Program-made: the position numbers and the translations under genes
Shown: piece after piece, positions 32,895 to 38,094 of the stretch
Layout: each line of letters begins with the position of its first letter
Position numbering within the stretch: the first letter of the stretch is position 1
The notes under the pieces: model-generated
Told to the model about the DNA's origin: nothing
Seen by the model: the letters and a program-made list of their open reading frames with translations, nothing else
Database searches by the model: none
Origin: a phage
Strand: one strand, 5' to 3'
Sequence record: PX104380.1
Length of the DNA: 64,000 nt

Positions 32895-33416
32895 TTATCC
32901 TTTCATTGAAGGCGTAACGGTTGTTAAATACTTAATCATAGCTTCAGCTTCTGATTTTGATAATGAAATTTCTCCATTGTTTTGACGAATAGAAATAAAA
33001 TCCGGATGACGGTCACCACCAGCTTTTAAAACGCACATATAAGTATCAACTTCGCCTTCAATATTTGAAATGATTGAAGCAGTTCCACATGAATGCGGTT
33101 TTTGATAAATCAATGCAGCTTTTCTTCCGCCATTTGACTGTTCATAAACTTTTAATACATCAAACAAATCACTTCTTTTATCAATAGCTAAAATGTTATT
33201 TTCATCTTCAATGTTAAATCCTTCGGATACTTCATAAAGTGTCACCCATAAATCGCCAATATCAATAACAGCGTTCACTTTTCCATGACTTTCAAGAGCA
33301 TGACAAATTTTCTTGATTTCGTCATAACCCATTTTAATAATATCATCTCCTTGAATAAGAAAGATGTCATTTTTAAATTCAACACGAATTAAACCACTTC
33401 CACTTGAAATAAACAT
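32895..33416 (-). CDS. hypothetical protein (tandem paralog A)
   Basis: 173 aa; C-terminus EAEAMIKYLTTVTPSM resembles the next gene. Confidence 0.5.
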   Translation of the reverse strand: MFISSGSGLIRVEFKNDIFLIQGDDIIKMGYDEIKKICHALESHGKVNAVIDIGDLWVTLYEVSEGFNIEDENNILAIDKRSDLFDVLKVYEQSNGGRKAALIYQKPHSCGTASIISNIEGEVDTYMCVLKAGGDRHPDFISIRQNNGEISLSKSEAEAMIKYLTTVTPSMKG

Positions 33417-33422
33417 ATTTCC

Positions 33423-33977
33423 TCACTTTGAAATCATAGTTGGAATGACAGAATCAAGATAATTCTTTAGCGCAATAGCTTCGTCTTTGGTAAATGTGAC
33501 AATATGTGCTCGAGAATCATCATTTTGGCGAACAAGTACGACATCGCCATCTTCATAAGAAGTCTTGACATCCAAAGTCGTAGTATAGTTTGCAGCTACT
33601 GGATTAATAATGCTAGCACCGCGATCTTTAGCCCATTGAAGTTTAACCTTTTCGGGTGTTTCGACTGTTTCAGATTCCAAGAATTCTTTCACCTTGGTAA
33701 CGAATGTTGCCCAATTGTTGATAGAAAGACACATAAATTCAGTTTCAATATTACCGCCGTAAAGGCCACGATAAAAACGAACTTGGAGGTCGCCTGTAAT
33801 ATTAGTTACACCGGTAACTCCTGAGGGAGCATAAGATAAAATCGCAGCCAGTTCCATAGGGAGAATAGTAATACTATCGTCTTCCTGCGTCAGAACGTAT
33901 ACATTATCACGTTTTTCGATAACCAGGTCACCGAACAAATCAGTTGTTTCAATTACAGCTTTCATATTATTTACCAA
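33423..33977 (-). CDS. hypothetical protein (tandem paralog B)
   Basis: 184 aa; C-terminus DEAIALKNYLDSVIPTM. Confidence 0.5.
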   Translation of the reverse strand: MVNNMKAVIETTDLFGDLVIEKRDNVYVLTQEDDSITILPMELAAILSYAPSGVTGVTNITGDLQVRFYRGLYGGNIETEFMCLSINNWATFVTKVKEFLESETVETPEKVKLQWAKDRGASIINPVAANYTTTLDVKTSYEDGDVVLVRQNDDSRAHIVTFTKDEAIALKNYLDSVIPTMISK

Positions 33978-34152
33978 TTAAAGTTTCAATATAAGAATCA
34001 AGATTTACTTTAGCTTCTTCCATAAGAATTTTGTATTTAATCTTGTTAGCATGTCCGGAGAAAGCTGATTCATCAATAATTGTTGATGTATGAACAGCTC
34101 TACTATACGTCTCAATTAATTCTCTTAATTTAAAAGCCTGCTCACTTGTCAT
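33967..34152 (-). CDS. small helical protein (small-protein family member)
   Basis: 61 aa; MTSEQAFKLRELIETY...LDSYIETLIGK. Confidence 0.5.
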   Translation of the reverse strand: MTSEQAFKLRELIETYSRAVHTSTIIDESAFSGHANKIKYKILMEEAKVNLDSYIETLIGK

Positions 34153-34256
34153 TACATACTCCTTTGAATAATATCAATAATGTTATTCACCAGATTATAA
34201 GTAAACATTGGGTAATTATATTGAATCATCACATACACAACAAACAAAACTTTCAT
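34152..34256 (-). CDS. possible 34-aa hydrophobic peptide
   Basis: Hand-translated: ATG at 34254-34256 after aaggag; stop overlaps next start (TAATG). Confidence 0.25.
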   Translation of the reverse strand: MKVLFVVYVMIQYNYPMFTYNLVNNIIDIIQRSM

Positions 34257-34284
34257 TCTCTTCTCCTTGGCAGTTGACAAGATT

Positions 34285-34314
34285 ACTATACCATAACCTT
34301 GCCAACTTGTAAAC
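34285..34314 (-). promoter_or_regulatory. T4-type early promoter
   Basis: Plus tgtaaac at 34308-34314, actata at 34285-34290 (-10 TATAGT), 17-nt spacer. Confidence 0.45.
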
Positions 34315-34316
34315 CA

Positions 34317-34490
34317 TTAAATGACGTTTTCGATAAAATTCTGAAGCTTTGTATGAGCATCAACCATGATTTTCATTTCTTCCTTTGCGAAAGCTGTGCC
34401 TCTTTCACGAGAAGAACATTCATAGTCAGAAACTGCATTAGCATATTCTTCAATTAGCTTCATTAAAAACATCTGCTTTTCAGTTTTCAT
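34317..34490 (-). CDS. small helical protein (family member, 57 aa, below track cutoff)
   Basis: Hand-translated MKTEKQMFLMKLIEEYANAV...LQNFIENVI; ATG at 34488-34490 overlaps upstream stop. Confidence 0.4.
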   Translation of the reverse strand: MKTEKQMFLMKLIEEYANAVSDYECSSRERGTAFAKEEMKIMVDAHTKLQNFIENVI

Positions 34491-34674
34491 TATTCCACCT
34501 AATCATTTCAAGATATTGAACTAACTTAGCTTTGGATTTATCCAAATCCTTTTTAGCTGTTGCTATACCTTCGTATGAATATCCTTCACAATGCTCAACT
34601 GCTAATTGATATGAATCTATTTCAACATCACGTGCTAATTTAATGATTTTTTCAAACTGTTCGTGTGTTAACAT
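34480..34674 (-). CDS. small helical protein (family member)
   Basis: 64 aa; MLTHEQFEKIIKLARD...LVQYLEMI. Confidence 0.5.
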   Translation of the reverse strand: MLTHEQFEKIIKLARDVEIDSYQLAVEHCEGYSYEGIATAKKDLDKSKAKLVQYLEMIRWNNEN

Positions 34675-34676
34675 AA

Positions 34677-34916
34677 TTAAACTCTCGTATTATGATCGAT
34701 AATTTCATCAAGAAACATATCTAACGCTTCTATAGCATTATCCACTTTAGTTTCAAAGTCTTTAATGCCTTTATTCGAAATACCCGATGAATACCAAGCA
34801 AAGTCAATCAGCTCTTCATCTGCTTTGCGAATTGAAGCCACTAATTCCTTGATTTTATCTGCTTGCTCTACGCTAATCATTATTCCACCACATATGACAG
34901 AGAGAATATTGCACAC
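34677..34916 (-). CDS. small helical protein (family member)
   Basis: 79 aa; [16 protein letters not shown]...LDMFLDEI. Confidence 0.5.
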
Positions 34917-35113
34917 GCCATGTGAGTTGCAACTTCATCACACATATTATAACGTTTCTTAAGAAGTTCTACAAGTTCTTCACTAGTAACTTCATCCATG
35001 TCGACGAAAAAATCACCATTAATGATGACGTAGATATTTCCTTCTTGATTGAGTGCTTCAATTTTCATGATGTTCTCCTCTTTATCCGATGGTTGTATAG
35101 TATCACAGCTCAA
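34880..35113 (-). CDS. hypothetical small protein
   Basis: Track start lies inside the promoter; ATG at 35066-35068 (MKIEALNQ) gives about 62 aa. Confidence 0.45.
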
Positions 35114-35126
35114 ACGGAAAGTAAAC
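35097..35126 (-). promoter_or_regulatory. T4-type early promoter
   Basis: Plus atagta at 35097-35102 and agtaaac at 35120-35126. Confidence 0.45.
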
Positions 35127-35142
35127 CGGTAAAATGAAAAAA

Positions 35143-35158
35143 GTCTCCCGAAGGAGAC
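35143..35158 (-). other. UUCG-tetraloop RNA hairpin
   Basis: Plus gtctcccgaaggagac. Confidence 0.45.
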
Positions 35159-35163
35159 TAATG

Positions 35164-35550
35164 TTATTCGAGGGAAAGAAGATACTTACTCTGGTAAAAC
35201 ATTCCAGTAATATCATCTATCGTGCTTTGAATGGCTGGAGGCATTTCTTTATAAATGCTGTTAGATTGGTCTAGTATGCGATCAATCATTTTAATTGTGT
35301 CGGTAGGAAGTTTACTGGCATCTGGAATTGAAGGCGTGTATTTTCTACCAGAATACCCCAAATATTGCTCACCAAATTTATCAATCAAATCTGGCAATTC
35401 GGAGAAAATAAAATCGTATGCTTTGTGTCTAGCATAACTTTTAGTTTCAAAATGCGCAGAATGAAAATAAGCTTGTGCAGCCATTAATAAACCTAAGTAT
35501 TCATCTGCCTTTGAAGGTTTTCCACTTTGTGAAAAGTCGCTGAATTTCAT
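35164..35550 (-). CDS. hypothetical protein (rI.-1-like)
   Basis: 128 aa; immediately downstream of rI. Confidence 0.55.
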
Positions 35551-35840
35551 TCAGTCTCCAATTTAATGTTCATAATTCTAGCGTATGATTGTGCCATCTC
35601 CGCGCCTCGTTCTATACATTCGAAATCAGAAGAGCACGGGTCATTTTTATAGGTCGTTCTCATAAAACTATAGAACTGTTCAGATGATTCTACGCTTTTA
35701 TTTTCAAAAAGCATATAAACATGTCTAATACCAGATTCCATAAATTTATCAAAATGAGGATCGACATTCGCTTCAATTGGTGGAGATAAAGCAAATGACA
35801 ATCCTAGCATGGCAAATAGTGCCGTTGCTTTTAAGGCCAT
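35547..35840 (-). CDS. rI: lysis inhibition regulator RI
   Basis: 97 aa, same length as T4 RI; N-terminal signal-anchor; adjacent to tk. Confidence 0.7.
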   Translation of the reverse strand: MALKATALFAMLGLSFALSPPIEANVDPHFDKFMESGIRHVYMLFENKSVESSEQFYSFMRTTYKNDPCSSDFECIERGAEMAQSYARIMNIKLETE

Positions 35841-35852
35841 AAAGGCCTCCTA

Positions 35853-36065
35853 TCATTTTTGTCCTGTATTTACTTTATGCCGATGCACGGCCTTAACTTT
35901 ATCAAGGTATTTTTCAAAATTTCGCAATCTAGTATAGTCTGCCGGAGATTGGTTGAGTGATACTTCTCGACGCAAAGCTGAAATGATATTTCCAACTTCC
36001 CTACGAATTTCATCTAATTGAAGCACAGTAAGATTGCGAAGTTGCTTTTCAGTTAATTGTAGCAT
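35853..36065 (-). CDS. small helical protein (rI.1-like; possible family member)
   Basis: 70 aa; [12 protein letters not shown]...FEKYLDKV. Confidence 0.5.
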
Positions 36066-36107
36066 ATATACCCCTTTAGTTAGATAAACCTATTTATAAC
36101 TTTTGCA

Positions 36108-36689
36108 CTAACCGAGCTTTTTAGTTAATTCGTTCCAGTGTTTTCTACACAAAGAAACATAAATTTCATCACCAATACAGATTTGATTACCTTCTTTAAC
36201 TGGTGTTCCATCTTCCATTAATCGAGCTGTCATAATCGCTTTTTTGCCGCAATGACAAACTGCCTTTAGTTCAATAAGTTTATCTGCAATCGCTAAAAGT
36301 TCTTTAGAACCTTCAAACAATTTTCCAGCGAAATCAGTCCTTAACCCATAAGCCATAACAGGAACATTATATGTATCAACAATTCGACTCAATTGATGCA
36401 CTTGTTCAGTTTTTAAAAATTGGGCTTCATCTACAAATACGCAATGAATATCTTTTTGTGCTTCAGCCCATTTATAGAACTCGAAAATATCCATATCATC
36501 TGTAATAATATTCGCTTCCTGTTTAATTCCAATGCGAGAAACAACTTCACAGACAGAATCACGAGTATCAATAGCAGGCTTAAGAACTAATACACTCATT
36601 CCACGTTCTTTATAATTATGTGCAGCAGTCAAAAGAGAAGCAGATTTTCCAGCATTCATTGCTGCATAAGTAAAAATTAAACTCGCCAT
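36108..36689 (-). CDS. tk: thymidine kinase
   Basis: 193 aa, same length as T4 Tk; P-loop AAMNAGKS; C-terminal Cys cluster. Confidence 0.9.
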   Translation of the reverse strand: MASLIFTYAAMNAGKSASLLTAAHNYKERGMSVLVLKPAIDTRDSVCEVVSRIGIKQEANIITDDMDIFEFYKWAEAQKDIHCVFVDEAQFLKTEQVHQLSRIVDTYNVPVMAYGLRTDFAGKLFEGSKELLAIADKLIELKAVCHCGKKAIMTARLMEDGTPVKEGNQICIGDEIYVSLCRKHWNELTKKLG

Positions 36690-36690
36690 C

Positions 36691-36879
36691 TTAGTCCTTA
36701 GTTAAATTTTCTAAATATGTTTCTAAATCATTTTCAGCTTTATCGATAGATTTTACTAATTCGTAATATGTTTCGGCATCTCCATATTCAGAAGATATTT
36801 CAAAAGACAAATCCTTTTCTAAACTAATAATTTCACCAACTAAAAATAATATTTCGTTCTTTTGTTCGCGAGTAATCAT
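36691..36879 (-). CDS. small helical protein (tk.1-like, family member)
   Basis: 62 aa; MITREQKNEILFLVGEI...LETYLENL. Confidence 0.5.
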   Translation of the reverse strand: MITREQKNEILFLVGEIISLEKDLSFEISSEYGDAETYYELVKSIDKAENDLETYLENLTKD

Positions 36880-37061
36880 AAGGAATTTATATAATCAATG
36901 AGTTCTTGTTCTTTATTATCAAATTCTTTGGAAAGTTCTTCATATTCATTTGCGCTAAAAGGACCGCATTCATTACAAACTTTTTCCAATTCACTATTTT
37001 TATCCATAATTTCGTGGATAAGAGAAAAGAGTTTGTCTTTTTGTTCTTTGCTTAGGCTCAT
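36876..37061 (-). CDS. small helical protein (tk.2-like, family member)
   Basis: 61 aa; MSLSKEQKDKLFSLIHEI...LIDYINSL. Confidence 0.5.
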   Translation of the reverse strand: MSLSKEQKDKLFSLIHEIMDKNSELEKVCNECGPFSANEYEELSKEFDNKEQELIDYINSL

Positions 37062-37231
37062 ATATTAATTTCCAGAAGTTTTAAAATAATTCGCTTTTGC
37101 TTAAATATTTCCACAGTTAAATGATCAGTATCTTTTTGACCAATTCCAATGGCAAAACCTTTATTAACAGCGAGTTCAATTAAATTATCAAGTTCACGTA
37201 ACACTTCATATTGTAACTCAGAACTATTCAT
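37058..37231 (-). CDS. small helical protein (family member, 57 aa, below track cutoff)
   Basis: Hand-translated MNSSELQYEVLRELDNLIELAV...; ATGA overlaps at both ends. Confidence 0.4.
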   Translation of the reverse strand: MNSSELQYEVLRELDNLIELAVNKGFAIGIGQKDTDHLTVEIFKQKRIILKLLEINI

Positions 37232-37455
37232 TTCGGTTTACCTTCTTTAACGAAATCTGGATAAGGATAAAATCCCGAATAAAATCCTTCACCTTTATGA
37301 TTGATGCATCCTTTATTAGAACAATAGCACCAATAATCGAAATCACAAGCCATTTCATCGTTACATAAAGCAAAAACAACCGGCCACTTACACTTTTCAC
37401 AGTGGGCATTTTTAAGAATACTAGTTTGGCTCATAACCATGTAACCTTTAAGCAA
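37228..37455 (-). CDS. Cys-rich small protein (probable zinc binding)
   Basis: 75 aa with CEKCKW and several further Cys/His. Confidence 0.45.
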   Translation of the reverse strand: MLKGYMVMSQTSILKNAHCEKCKWPVVFALCNDEMACDFDYWCYCSNKGCINHKGEGFYSGFYPYPDFVKEGKPK

Positions 37456-37643
37456 TATTCTTCTACATGTTGTTTACGACCTTTCTTATCAATAAAGGTA
37501 TATTCAACGAATGTTCCAATGTAGTCTTTATCTACATCATGTGGACTATTAATTGGGCATTTAGTACGGCAAATGCGTTCCCATTGACGAATAATTACTG
37601 CTTTGTTTTTAGGATCAAACGGATGTGGGTAATGTACTTTCAT
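37431..37643 (-). CDS. hypothetical protein
   Basis: 70 aa track ORF. Confidence 0.45.
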   Translation of the reverse strand: MKVHYPHPFDPKNKAVIIRQWERICRTKCPINSPHDVDKDYIGTFVEYTFIDKKGRKQHVEEYCLKVTWL

Positions 37644-38094
37644 AATCCACCACTATTAAATCAATATCAGGAGTAAACATGTCGATTAATTTAGAAACCT
37701 TATCCCAATCGCCGCCAGCAATACCACAACCTATACGTGGAATGTAAATTACTGGTTTAAACAAAAGGGTTTCTGCCTGTAGATTTAATTCTATCATGCA
37801 GTTTACTAAAGCACCATAATCAAGATTAGGACCTGGTTCGTATTGCGTATACAAGTTATAACATATGCCAAACCCATTAGGTTTATGTTTAAAAACAATA
37901 GACATATCGCCTAATTTATCACGAGAACCGTACTCAGTAGTGGTTTTATCTATTTCTAAAATTTTGGGATAGGCTCTTGCTAATTGACCAGCTACACCAC
38001 TGCCCATTGTATGAAAACAGTTACACCCGTGCGCAATAATATTACCTTCAAGAAAGAGGGCGACAATATCGCCCTTGATATATTTTACAATCAT
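37615..38094 (-). CDS. macro-domain (ADP-ribose binding/processing) protein
   Basis: 159 aa; IKGDIV, IIAHGCNC and MGSGVAGQLARAYP resemble macro-domain GDIT, VNAAN and GGGVxGAI motifs. Confidence 0.55.
   Translation of the reverse strand: MIVKYIKGDIVALFLEGNIIAHGCNCFHTMGSGVAGQLARAYPKILEIDKTTTEYGSRDKLGDMSIVFKHKPNGFGICYNLYTQYEPGPNLDYGALVNCMIELNLQAETLLFKPVIYIPRIGCGIAGGDWDKVSKLIDMFTPDIDLIVVDYESTLPTSV

Follow-up and report, generated by a model that had tools for sequence, protein, structure and literature searches.

Six diverged DUF7438 paralogues in the mobD.2–tk.2 early region of a T4-like phage: predicted helical hairpins with a possible protein-binding role

The DNA analysed here, a 64,000-nucleotide stretch of phage record PX104380.1 (the window), belongs to a Tequatrovirus and shares 99.7% identity with phages ECP52 and G4507. 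On its minus strand, in the region corresponding to the T4 mobD.2–tk.2 early region, lie six small genes spanning positions 33967 to 37061 that are, with near certainty, diverged paralogues within a single family restricted to phages, Pfam DUF7438 (PF24219). They comprise a copy of the RB14-ORF101c type, mobD.2a, mobD.3, mobD.4, tk.1, and tk.2. The name "DUF7438 family protein" is already in use at NCBI for such products, hence the low novelty of the set, which is ordinary, previously catalogued phage "dark matter."

Four of the copies are on the mobD side of the locus. The first (33967 to 34152, minus strand; RB14 ncORF101c type, 61 aa, pI 6.1) matches PF24219 at an E value of 2.8e-14 (53.7 bits), belongs to phrog_4859, has an AAGGAG Shine-Dalgarno sequence, and overlaps mobD.2 through TAATG. 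Its relatives are labelled "helicase loader" in RefSeq and PHROG; however, BLASTP against gp59 of phage G4507 gave only E 0.82 over 8 residues, and since the product matches DUF7438 and not gp59, this label is an annotation artefact. The following copies, also on the minus strand, are mobD.2a (34317 to 34490; 57 aa; Pfam E 3.7e-15), with a product identical to that of T4 at 57 of 57 residues and named "DUF7438 family protein" by NCBI; mobD.3 (34480 to 34674; 64 aa; Pfam E 2.6e-15), 57/64 residues of which are identical to T4; and mobD.4 (34677 to 34880, with its ATG start at 34880; 67 aa; Pfam E 1.3e-15), the T4 counterpart of which is shorter by 7 residues owing to a deletion at the hairpin tip. 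Relatives of mobD.4 carry the RefSeq label [quoted passage not shown] a mislabel for a gene that matches DUF7438. The remaining two copies, again on the minus strand, are tk.1 (36691 to 36879; 62 aa; Pfam E 6.8e-15) and tk.2 (36876 to 37061; 61 aa; Pfam E 6e-19, 68.6 bits), identical to their T4 orthologues at 62/62 and 59/61 residues, respectively.

With near certainty, the six genes are distributed over two polycistronic early units and are coupled to adjacent genes through stop and start codons that overlap or abut. The ATGA and TAATG overlaps reported in the preliminary description are indeed present, the former at ORF111c/ORF110c, ORF110c/tk.2, and tk.2/tk.1 (tk.2 having one at both ends) and the latter at mobD.5/mobD.4 and mobD.2/ORF101c type. 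In addition, an 11-nt overlap joins mobD.3 to mobD.2a, and spacers of 1 to 2 nt separate mobD.4 from mobD.3 and tk.1 from tk, the spacer directly upstream of tk being 1 nt. The annotated thymidine kinase gene tk (36108 to 36689, minus strand) is, by synteny, conserved as the gene that follows the tk.1-type copy. Shine-Dalgarno sequences are weak or absent in tk.1 and tk.2. The coupled unit mobD.5-mobD.4-mobD.3-mobD.2a begins with mobD.5 (34880 to 35068, minus strand; 62 aa; phrog_3024), which is unrelated to the family (−0.4 bits against the family profile). Between rI.-1 and mobD.5, a terminator-like hairpin followed by a T-run (35142 to 35159, minus strand), which the G4507 record lists as a putative terminator, separates the tk-side and mobD-side transcription units. 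A promoter-like site, TTTACA-17-TATAGT with an upstream TG, is found as a consensus match between mobD.2a and mobD.2 (34285 to 34313, minus strand). The earlier picture, of small helical proteins encoded by a translationally coupled family of early-region genes, thus agrees with the junctions seen here and with the early expression known for the T4 orthologues.

Although pairwise identity among the six members is just 12 to 37%, all of them match the 57-position DUF7438 model from position 1 to 56 or 57, with E values of 6e-19 to 3e-14 and scores of 53.7 to 68.6 bits against a curated gathering cut-off of 25 bits. In leave-one-out searches of the 1203 six-frame ORFs of the window, profiles built from five copies ranked the omitted copy first (E 2.6e-4 for the ORF101c-type copy, 7e-5 for mobD.2a, 6e-3 for mobD.3, 2e-3 for mobD.4, 3e-5 for tk.1, and 6e-6 for tk.2, i.e., 6e-6 to 6e-3), the best nonmember having an E value of at least 0.17. 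A profile made from external sequences only recovered 6/6 members (E 3e-19 to 2e-4), and subfamily-versus-subfamily comparison with hhalign gave probabilities of 96 to 98% (E 5e-9 to 5e-14). Pfam, leave-one-out, and AlphaFold results bear out the proposed multicopy family of small helical proteins for six members. The count of "at least seven" genes given in the preliminary description is by contrast reduced to six by Pfam, profile search, and hhalign. Its N-terminal motif matches only mobD.4 as written, whereas a relaxed form matches five of the six members; its C-terminal motif is found in four of the six but also at 6 unrelated sites (3.7 expected by chance); and of the two genes it placed below 60 aa, both of which encode 57 residues, mobD.2a alone belongs to the family.

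The other gene of that length (37058 to 37231, minus strand; phrog_3452), which had been counted as a seventh copy, is of the RB32ORF110c type and absent from T4, which lacks it between tk.3 and tk.2. The suggested eighth, rI.1 (35853 to 36065, minus strand; 70 aa; phrog_1826), encodes a basic protein (pI 10.2) with its own Pfam family, PF26904 (Phage_T4_Y05Q), carried by 22 of 22 listed rI.1 homologues. Neither gene matched DUF7438 at E ≤ 1 in the Pfam search or appeared in the results of the window and genome family-profile searches. Direct scanning with the widest family profile gave −0.7 bits for 37058-37231 and 2.9 bits for rI.1, and hhalign against the family returned probabilities of 0.8% (8 columns) and 7% (16 columns), compared to 96 to 98% for the positive controls. 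Both candidates thus fail every one of these sequence tests. The product of 37058-37231 is itself a predicted helical hairpin (AlphaFold2 helices 3-27 and 32-52, pLDDT 83.5), which probably explains its resemblance to the family. That the larger family is correct after all, with these two genes as extremely diverged members, is very improbable and has already been largely refuted: 37058-37231 does encode a two-helix hairpin of equal size within the same ATGA-coupled chain, but hairpins of such size easily arise independently, each gene has its own PHROG, rI.1 is basic and belongs to PF26904, and neither gene is detected by Pfam, the family-profile searches, or profile-profile comparison.

AlphaFold2 modelled the Tk.2 monomer as an antiparallel hairpin with helices at residues 5-30 and 34-60 (pLDDT 91.8), a two-helix structure in line with the helical character previously proposed, and each member is with near certainty predicted to form an antiparallel two-helix coiled-coil hairpin of ~60 residues. 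Hydrophobic positions follow a heptad 3-4 spacing in both helices (11/14/18/21/25 and 40/43/47/50/54/57/61), with additional ones (12, 15, and 58) at the termini end only. Positions 3-18 and 54-61 show low column entropy and positions 19-46 high entropy, i.e., the termini-bearing end of the hairpin is conserved and the loop end variable. The family as a whole is acidic (median pI 4.4, median net charge −8), with net charges of −10, −8, and −7 for tk.1, tk.2, and mobD.4 (pI 4.2 to 4.4) and just −1 to −3 for the ORF101c-type copy, mobD.2a, and mobD.3. Foldseek returned no significant match (best E 0.82 in PDB and 0.10 in BFVD), the helical hairpin being a generic shape, and a PDB sequence search gave nothing below E 0.035.

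In T4, early RNA has been recorded for all five members present and protein for four of them, MobD.3, MobD.4, Tk.1, and Tk.2; MobD.3 combines early RNA with early protein, while Tk, Tk.1, and Tk.2 fall into one expression class, early RNA/middle protein (PMC9697503 supplement). An early promoter upstream of T4 mobD.5 was mapped by primer extension on early-infection RNA (PMC1702504). The five T4 members are nonessential in laboratory Escherichia coli, where transposon insertions in them are neutral, and the hits reported with RexAB, RnlAB, CBASS, DarTG1, or DarTG2 or in minimal versus rich medium include none of them (HIDEN-SEQ preprint). Redundancy among the five copies could, however, mask a conditional effect. 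The T4 nrdC.11-mobD.3 block is also deletable (PMC9825161). Our literature search found no interaction, toxicity, phenotype, or structural data for these genes, nor any functional discussion of them.

DUF7438 is confined to enterobacterial T4-like phages, which carry between 1 and 6 copies near tk; among 1.84 billion proteins, only 31 representative clusters were retrieved at E ≤ 1e-3, with no cellular homologue. In Tequatrovirus, Gelderlandvirus, Gaprivervirus, Marfavirus, and several metagenomic T4-like contigs, the gene directly preceding tk belongs to DUF7438; in Moonvirus KM16, the two are a single gene apart. This arrangement, together with the 1-nt tk.1/tk gap and the expression class shared by Tk, Tk.1, and Tk.2 in T4, would fit a part in thymidine kinase function and phage nucleotide metabolism, as accessory subunits or as regulators, with the tk.1-type copy coupled to Tk in a fixed ratio and binding Tk or the dNTP-synthesising complex. 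We consider such a function unlikely. Four of the six copies lie 1.2 to 2.1 kb downstream of tk, past the terminator-like hairpin and transcribed in one or two units of their own; in Karamvirus, Gualtarvirus, Slopekvirus, Krischvirus, and an Aeromonas phage, tk has no detectable DUF7438 gene closer than 4 kb (with Zn-binding or DUF7202-like small genes filling the slot upstream of tk in the examples from Karamvirus and Gualtarvirus); and the comparison of minimal and rich medium listed none of the five T4 members.

The copy number near tk, anywhere from 0 to 6 in relatives, and a hybrid tk.2/tk.1 gene in one metagenomic phage might instead suggest genes that do little or nothing themselves, being either duplicated filler ORFs that persist where the genome is hyperplastic or relays whose translation only delivers ribosomes to downstream genes such as tk. 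The dispensability of the T4 members and their absence from the reported conditional hits would agree with this, as would the reliance of tk.1 and tk.2 on ATGA coupling. Yet the coding frames are under purifying selection at the amino acid level (pooled pN/pS 0.17 versus RB14), protein-level motifs and length are conserved despite the low identity, and the proteins are detected in infected cells. Moreover, the paralogue lineages are old, and each of those of tk.1, tk.2, mobD.3, and mobD.4 is found again in other genera, which speaks for separate roles having been kept. Mere filler or relay ORFs are an unlikely explanation.

With low confidence, we suggest that the DUF7438 proteins may be small modules that bind other proteins and serve host takeover or counter-defence; the idea put forward in the preliminary description, that they are inhibitors of host proteins, is plausible. 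Acting stoichiometrically, each would present at its conserved end the N-terminal half of helix 1 packed on the C-terminal half of helix 2, with a widened hydrophobic stripe. This end could provide an interface common to the family, either for self-association into a Rop-like four-helix bundle, a putative homodimer deduced from the further hydrophobic positions (12, 15, and 58), or for docking to a shared partner; its conservation could also reflect folding alone. The hypervariable, indel-prone, and mostly acidic loop-proximal half would then give each old paralogue lineage a separate target, the whole set forming a battery, redundant in part, that binds or inhibits host proteins. Such a role is consistent with the accessory character of the genes, as seen in their nonessentiality in T4, the deletable block, and the variable copy number, and with their surroundings, which include proven counter-defence genes: tk.4/AdfM, active against DarTG2, and, upstream in related loci, a gene of the Acb2/Tad1 type. 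Searches of the members with PADLOC gave chance-level matches only (E about 0.01, 12 to 13 bits), NCBIfam gave none above cut-off, and Pfam detected no Acb2/Tad1 (PF24729) or other anti-defence domain at E ≤ 1.

By analogy with the acidic DNA mimics Arn and Ocr, the proteins might alternatively fill the sites at which host nucleases or nucleoid proteins bind DNA, which is really a special case of the protein-binding-module explanation. Early expression and the strong acidity of tk.1, tk.2, and mobD.4 speak for mimicry, but three members are near neutral, a 60-residue hairpin is short even as a dimer, and fold searches revealed no likeness to known mimics, making this variant improbable. Nucleic-acid-binding regulators, whether Rop-like RNA binders or CsoR/FrmR-like DNA-binding helical bundles, are less probable still: Rop, FrmR, and CsoR do rank among the top structural matches (TM 0.82 to 0.84), but not significantly so (E 0.9 to 3.6), the proteins are acidic rather than basic, and no sequence relationship was found in Pfam, NCBIfam, or PDB.

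Compared with known systems, the window genes are the same genes as those of T4, Pfam DUF7438, and PHROGs 653, 2758, and 4859. T4 differs in lacking the sixth copy (RB14-ORF101c type, phrog_4859) and in its shorter MobD.4, and PHROGs split into three groups what Pfam and our own profiles treat as one family. Rop, the ColE1 repressor of primer, and other helical hairpins that dimerise into four-helix bundles share with DUF7438 a pair of antiparallel helices in ~60 residues, packed in heptads (TM 0.84 against Rop variants); however, Rop entries are not significant in Foldseek (E 1.5 to 4.2) and show no sequence relationship, and Rop binds RNA, whereas the DUF7438 proteins are acidic. The Acb2/Tad1 hairpin domain (PF24729), encoded a few kilobases upstream in related loci, is small, helical, and phage-specific like DUF7438, but Acb2 and Tad1 exceed it in size, and DUF7438 offers no basis for inferring a ligand-binding pocket. 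Small early T4 proteins that bind host proteins and reprogram them, such as the anti-sigma factor AsiA, have no homology to DUF7438, and AsiA is single copy, as opposed to five or six copies. They resemble the DUF7438 proteins in being small and early, in having all-helical or simple folds without enzyme motifs, and in acting stoichiometrically, as proposed here for DUF7438.

Six small genes on the minus strand of the window matched the full model of DUF7438 (PF24219) with 53.7 to 68.6 bits (cut-off, 25): an RB14-ncORF101c-type copy (33967-34152), mobD.2a (34317-34490), mobD.3 (34480-34674), mobD.4 (34677-34880), tk.1 (36691-36879), and tk.2 (36876-37061). They are the known T4 genes mobD.2a, mobD.3, mobD.4, tk.1, and tk.2 plus a sixth copy of the type found in RB14 and its relatives. 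With gene names taken from the RB14 record, the minus-strand order, read downstream from high to low coordinates, is vs, tk.4, tk.3, RB32ORF111c, RB32ORF110c, tk.2, tk.1, tk, rI.1, rI, rI.-1, mobD.5, mobD.4, mobD.3, mobD.2a, mobD.2, the RB14-ncORF101c-type copy, and two mobD.1-like genes. The corresponding 3.4-kb stretch is 99.7% identical in the Escherichia phages ECP52 and vB_EcoM_G4507 and 95 to 99% identical in most of the 550 matching T4-like records.

The six members share only 12 to 37% identity and are divided in PHROGs among phrog_653, 2758, and 4859, groups that cross-match. Nevertheless, a profile built from any five of them placed the sixth copy at the top of 1203 six-frame ORFs of the window (E, 6e-6 to 6e-3; best nonmember, E ≥ 0.17), indicating that their relationship is not a chance pattern. 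A profile made from external sequences alone likewise recovered all six, and when the family was divided in two, hhalign between the parts gave probabilities of 96 to 98% (E, 5e-9 to 5e-14). The preliminary description had counted at least seven members, with rI.1 as a possible eighth; six genes stood up to testing, and two had been wrongly included. The supposed seventh, the 57-aa RB32ORF110c-type gene at 37058-37231, had no DUF7438 match, scored -0.7 bits against the widest family profile, and aligned by hhalign over 8 columns with a probability of 0.8%; rI.1 (35853-36065) also had no DUF7438 match, with 2.9 bits against the same profile and an hhalign probability of 7% over 16 columns. Each falls in a PHROG of its own. 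The rI.1 product is a basic protein (pI 10.2) with PF26904-bearing homologues, while the 37058-37231 product, encoded by a gene missing from T4, is a predicted helical hairpin of the same size as the family members, which probably explains the visual resemblance. As a hidden DUF7438 member, mobD.5 was rejected on a family-profile scan.

The N-terminal motif by which the genes had been recognized fits only mobD.4 in its literal form, but a relaxed form fits five members, against none expected after shuffling; by itself, the C-terminal motif was near chance level (10 matches versus 3.7 expected). The tight coupling of the genes was borne out, the junctions consisting of ATGA, TAATG, an 11-nt overlap, and 1- to 2-nt spacers. 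Profile searches turned up no further DUF7438 copy in the 64-kb window. In the closest complete genome, the sole marginal candidate outside the window was a 76-aa gene in the pseT-Rz region (L005:7838-8068, the G4507 locus, between pseT and Rz-like spanin genes), with an E of about 1e-3 against the family profiles and no Pfam match. Its product has DUF7438-like termini (MISWHQFEHLKGLI... and ...LHDYIQSLVE) separated by a longer middle and may be a remote seventh genomic member.

The family is narrow, with just 31 clusters among 1.84 billion representative proteins at E ≤ 1e-3. Two long proteins excepted, those of the clusters are 38 to 76 aa in length, and at both extremes of this range are truncated or frameshifted versions of these genes. 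Neither long protein is a homologue: P0019 (936 aa, metagenomic) is a repeat protein with at least 13 tandem 23-residue repeats (…TLSSEQRSTLTELLHTIESTSET…) that match only by mimicry of the N-terminal motif, and P0013 (3490 aa) lacks a qualifying stretch. The family alignment contains no conserved run of 7 to 10 columns. Related loci, identified by exact-protein look-ups and tblastn, place members in Tequatrovirus, Gelderlandvirus, Moonvirus, Gaprivervirus, Marfavirus, and metagenomic T4-like contigs, where one to three copies lie just upstream of tk and sometimes more lie downstream of rI.-1. In a neighbor-joining tree, the tk.1-, tk.2-, mobD.3-, and mobD.4-type copies cluster by type across genera; the paralogues thus arose by old duplications, and their lineages have persisted. 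Pooled pN/pS against RB14 was 0.17 (23 synonymous and 17 nonsynonymous changes). On an 86-kb metagenomic T4-like scaffold (L016:3001-3153), the two genes upstream of tk are replaced by a 50-aa in-frame hybrid of the Tk.2 N-terminal half and the Tk.1 C-terminal half. Unequal recombination between tandem paralogues would be expected to yield such a product, and the hybrid looks like one, although it could conceivably be an assembly artefact or collapse.

The AlphaFold2 model of Tk.2 (pLDDT 91.8) consists of two antiparallel helices (residues 5 to 30 and 34 to 60). In a 26-sequence family alignment, hydrophobic columns are heptad spaced in both helices, with extra hydrophobic positions (12, 15, and 58) near the termini only. 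Sequence conservation centres on the first half of helix 1 (approximately M-[IL]-[TS]-x-E-Q-x-x-K-[IL]-x-x-L-[VI], its Ser/Thr positioned as a helix cap) and is high as well in the second half of helix 2 (approximately L-x-x-[YF]-[LIV]-x-x-[LI]); these two stretches lie opposite one another across the hairpin. Variability is strong in the loop-proximal half, which also accepts indels, T4 MobD.4 being 7 residues short there. Most members are acidic (family median pI 4.4, net charge -8), including Tk.1 (-10), Tk.2 (-8), and MobD.4 (-7); the other three window copies range from -1 to -3. Foldseek-type searches with the Tk.2 model returned only generic hairpins from the PDB (Rop, FrmR/CsoR, and designed bundles; best E 0.82) and only uncharacterised phage proteins from BFVD (best E 0.10). 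A sequence-profile search of the PDB found no solved relative, and the PADLOC (defence) and NCBIfam libraries gave chance-level matches only.

T4 has exactly five copies in the same region. Their products match the window proteins exactly or almost exactly, except for MobD.4, whose window form shares 49 residues with the T4 form and is 7 residues longer. In T4, mobD.3 and mobD.4 belong to early RNA and early protein classes, tk.1 and tk.2 combine early RNA with middle protein, and mobD.2a has early RNA and no protein class (PMC9697503 supplement). A promoter before mobD.5 was mapped by primer extension on RNA of early T4 infection, its transcript being insensitive to RegB (PMC1702504); in the window, a terminator-like hairpin precedes this position (35142-35159, minus strand) and a promoter-like site lies between mobD.2a and mobD.2 (34285-34313, minus strand). 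Neither tk.1 nor tk.2 has a good Shine-Dalgarno sequence, and both are therefore probably translated via termination-reinitiation. By T4 transposon sequencing all five members are nonessential, and none was a hit with RexAB, RnlAB, CBASS, DarTG1, DarTG2, or minimal medium (bioRxiv 10.1101/2025.11.20.689424). The nrdC.11-mobD.3 block can be deleted (PMC9825161).

Several neighboring genes deserve mention in their own right. About 0.55 kb upstream of tk.2 lies a macro-domain gene (37615-38094, minus strand), the orthologue of T4 tk.4, which a 2025 preprint reports to be AdfM, an anti-DarTG2 factor, and Acb2-type genes occur in the neighborhood of the family in related loci. The RB32ORF110c-type hairpin gene is accompanied by a zinc-binding gene (PF23895, RB32ORF111c type) in the window (37058-37434, minus strand) and in RB14; T4 lacks both and tk.3 abuts tk.2, an indel in an ATGA-coupled chain. 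A second family with duplicated genes follows immediately downstream of the DUF7438 copies: two adjacent tandem paralogues (173 aa, 32895-33416, and 184 aa, 33423-33977; both minus strand), each with T4_y05I_N and T4_y05I_C domains (mobD.1 family, "putative transcription factor"). The 34-aa hydrophobic peptide encoded by mobD.2 (34152-34256, minus strand; GRAVY 0.68) has no family match; its gene is TAATG coupled to the 33967-34152 copy and lies just downstream of the promoter-like site at 34285-34313. The rI.-1 product (DUF5856; 35164-35550, minus strand) has 128 aa in the window and RB14 and about 60 aa in T4 records (L023:5140-5322, the T4 locus), where about 300 nt before mobD.5 carry no annotated gene; the T4 reference rI.-1 may thus be a truncated or deleted form.

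The genes were already annotated as ORFs in the T4 record X04567, the tk-side pair as ORFs 59.7 and 59.9, and NCBI already uses the label "DUF7438 family protein." RefSeq/GenBank relatives of 33967-34152, 34480-34674, and 34677-34880 nevertheless carry wrong product names. "Helicase loader," which entered via phrog_4859, is an annotation artefact, there being no similarity to gp59, and [quoted passage not shown] confuses the T4 locus name mobD with bacterial MobD. The 90%-identity cluster with Tk.2 (61 aa) also lists many 70-aa DUF7202 (tk.3-type) proteins and 43-aa "Tk.2" fragments, which looks like an artefact either of clustering or of gene calling where genes overlap in the source collection.

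A literature search on DUF7438, mobD.x, and tk.x found no functional study, the genes being mentioned in genome-scale data sets only. Judging from their anatomy, the hairpins would be small modules that bind proteins stoichiometrically. Their conserved end, with the two termini, would provide a common interface, for self-association into a four-helix bundle or for docking on a shared partner, and the variable acidic end would set specificity. As a hypothesis, the set would then form a battery, redundant in part, of proteins that bind or inhibit host proteins and serve takeover or counter-defence, a reading that we regard as possible but tentative and that agrees with the genes being accessory, early, and located near tk.4/AdfM and Acb2-type genes. 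Somewhat less probable is a more specific form of it, in which five or six diversified and partly redundant stoichiometric inhibitors or decoys would keep one docking or dimerization end while the variable acidic loop-proximal surface of each old lineage would neutralize a different host protein, whether of defence or of housekeeping. Single knock-outs would then be silent either through redundancy or because E. coli K-12 lacks the targets. A role linked to Tk is weakened, since four of the six copies lie in other transcription units and tk occurs without the family: obligatory linkage was rejected because five T4-like groups at greater distance (Karamvirus, Gualtarvirus, Slopekvirus, Krischvirus, and Aeromonas phage UP87) have tk but, within 4 kb of it, no detectable copy. 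DNA mimicry, a special case of the binder battery, does not fit the three near-neutral window copies. The net charge contradicts a role in nucleic-acid binding, and near-neutral filler or relay ORFs are contradicted by purifying selection, retention of the lineages, and detection of the proteins.

Overall, nothing here overturns current knowledge, and the family is already curated as a DUF. The gains are a corrected membership, a structural picture of conserved and variable ends, and the clearing of misleading database names. Grouping the genes as one family also implies that single-gene screens, such as transposon and CRISPRi maps, may overlook a function that the copies share or cover redundantly. 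Of the virulent phages, T4 is the most thoroughly studied, and about 40% of its genes are still without function. DUF7438 accounts for five such genes in T4 and six in the window phage. They are expressed early, are kept as distinct lineages in several genera, and lie beside proven counter-defence genes such as tk.4/AdfM.
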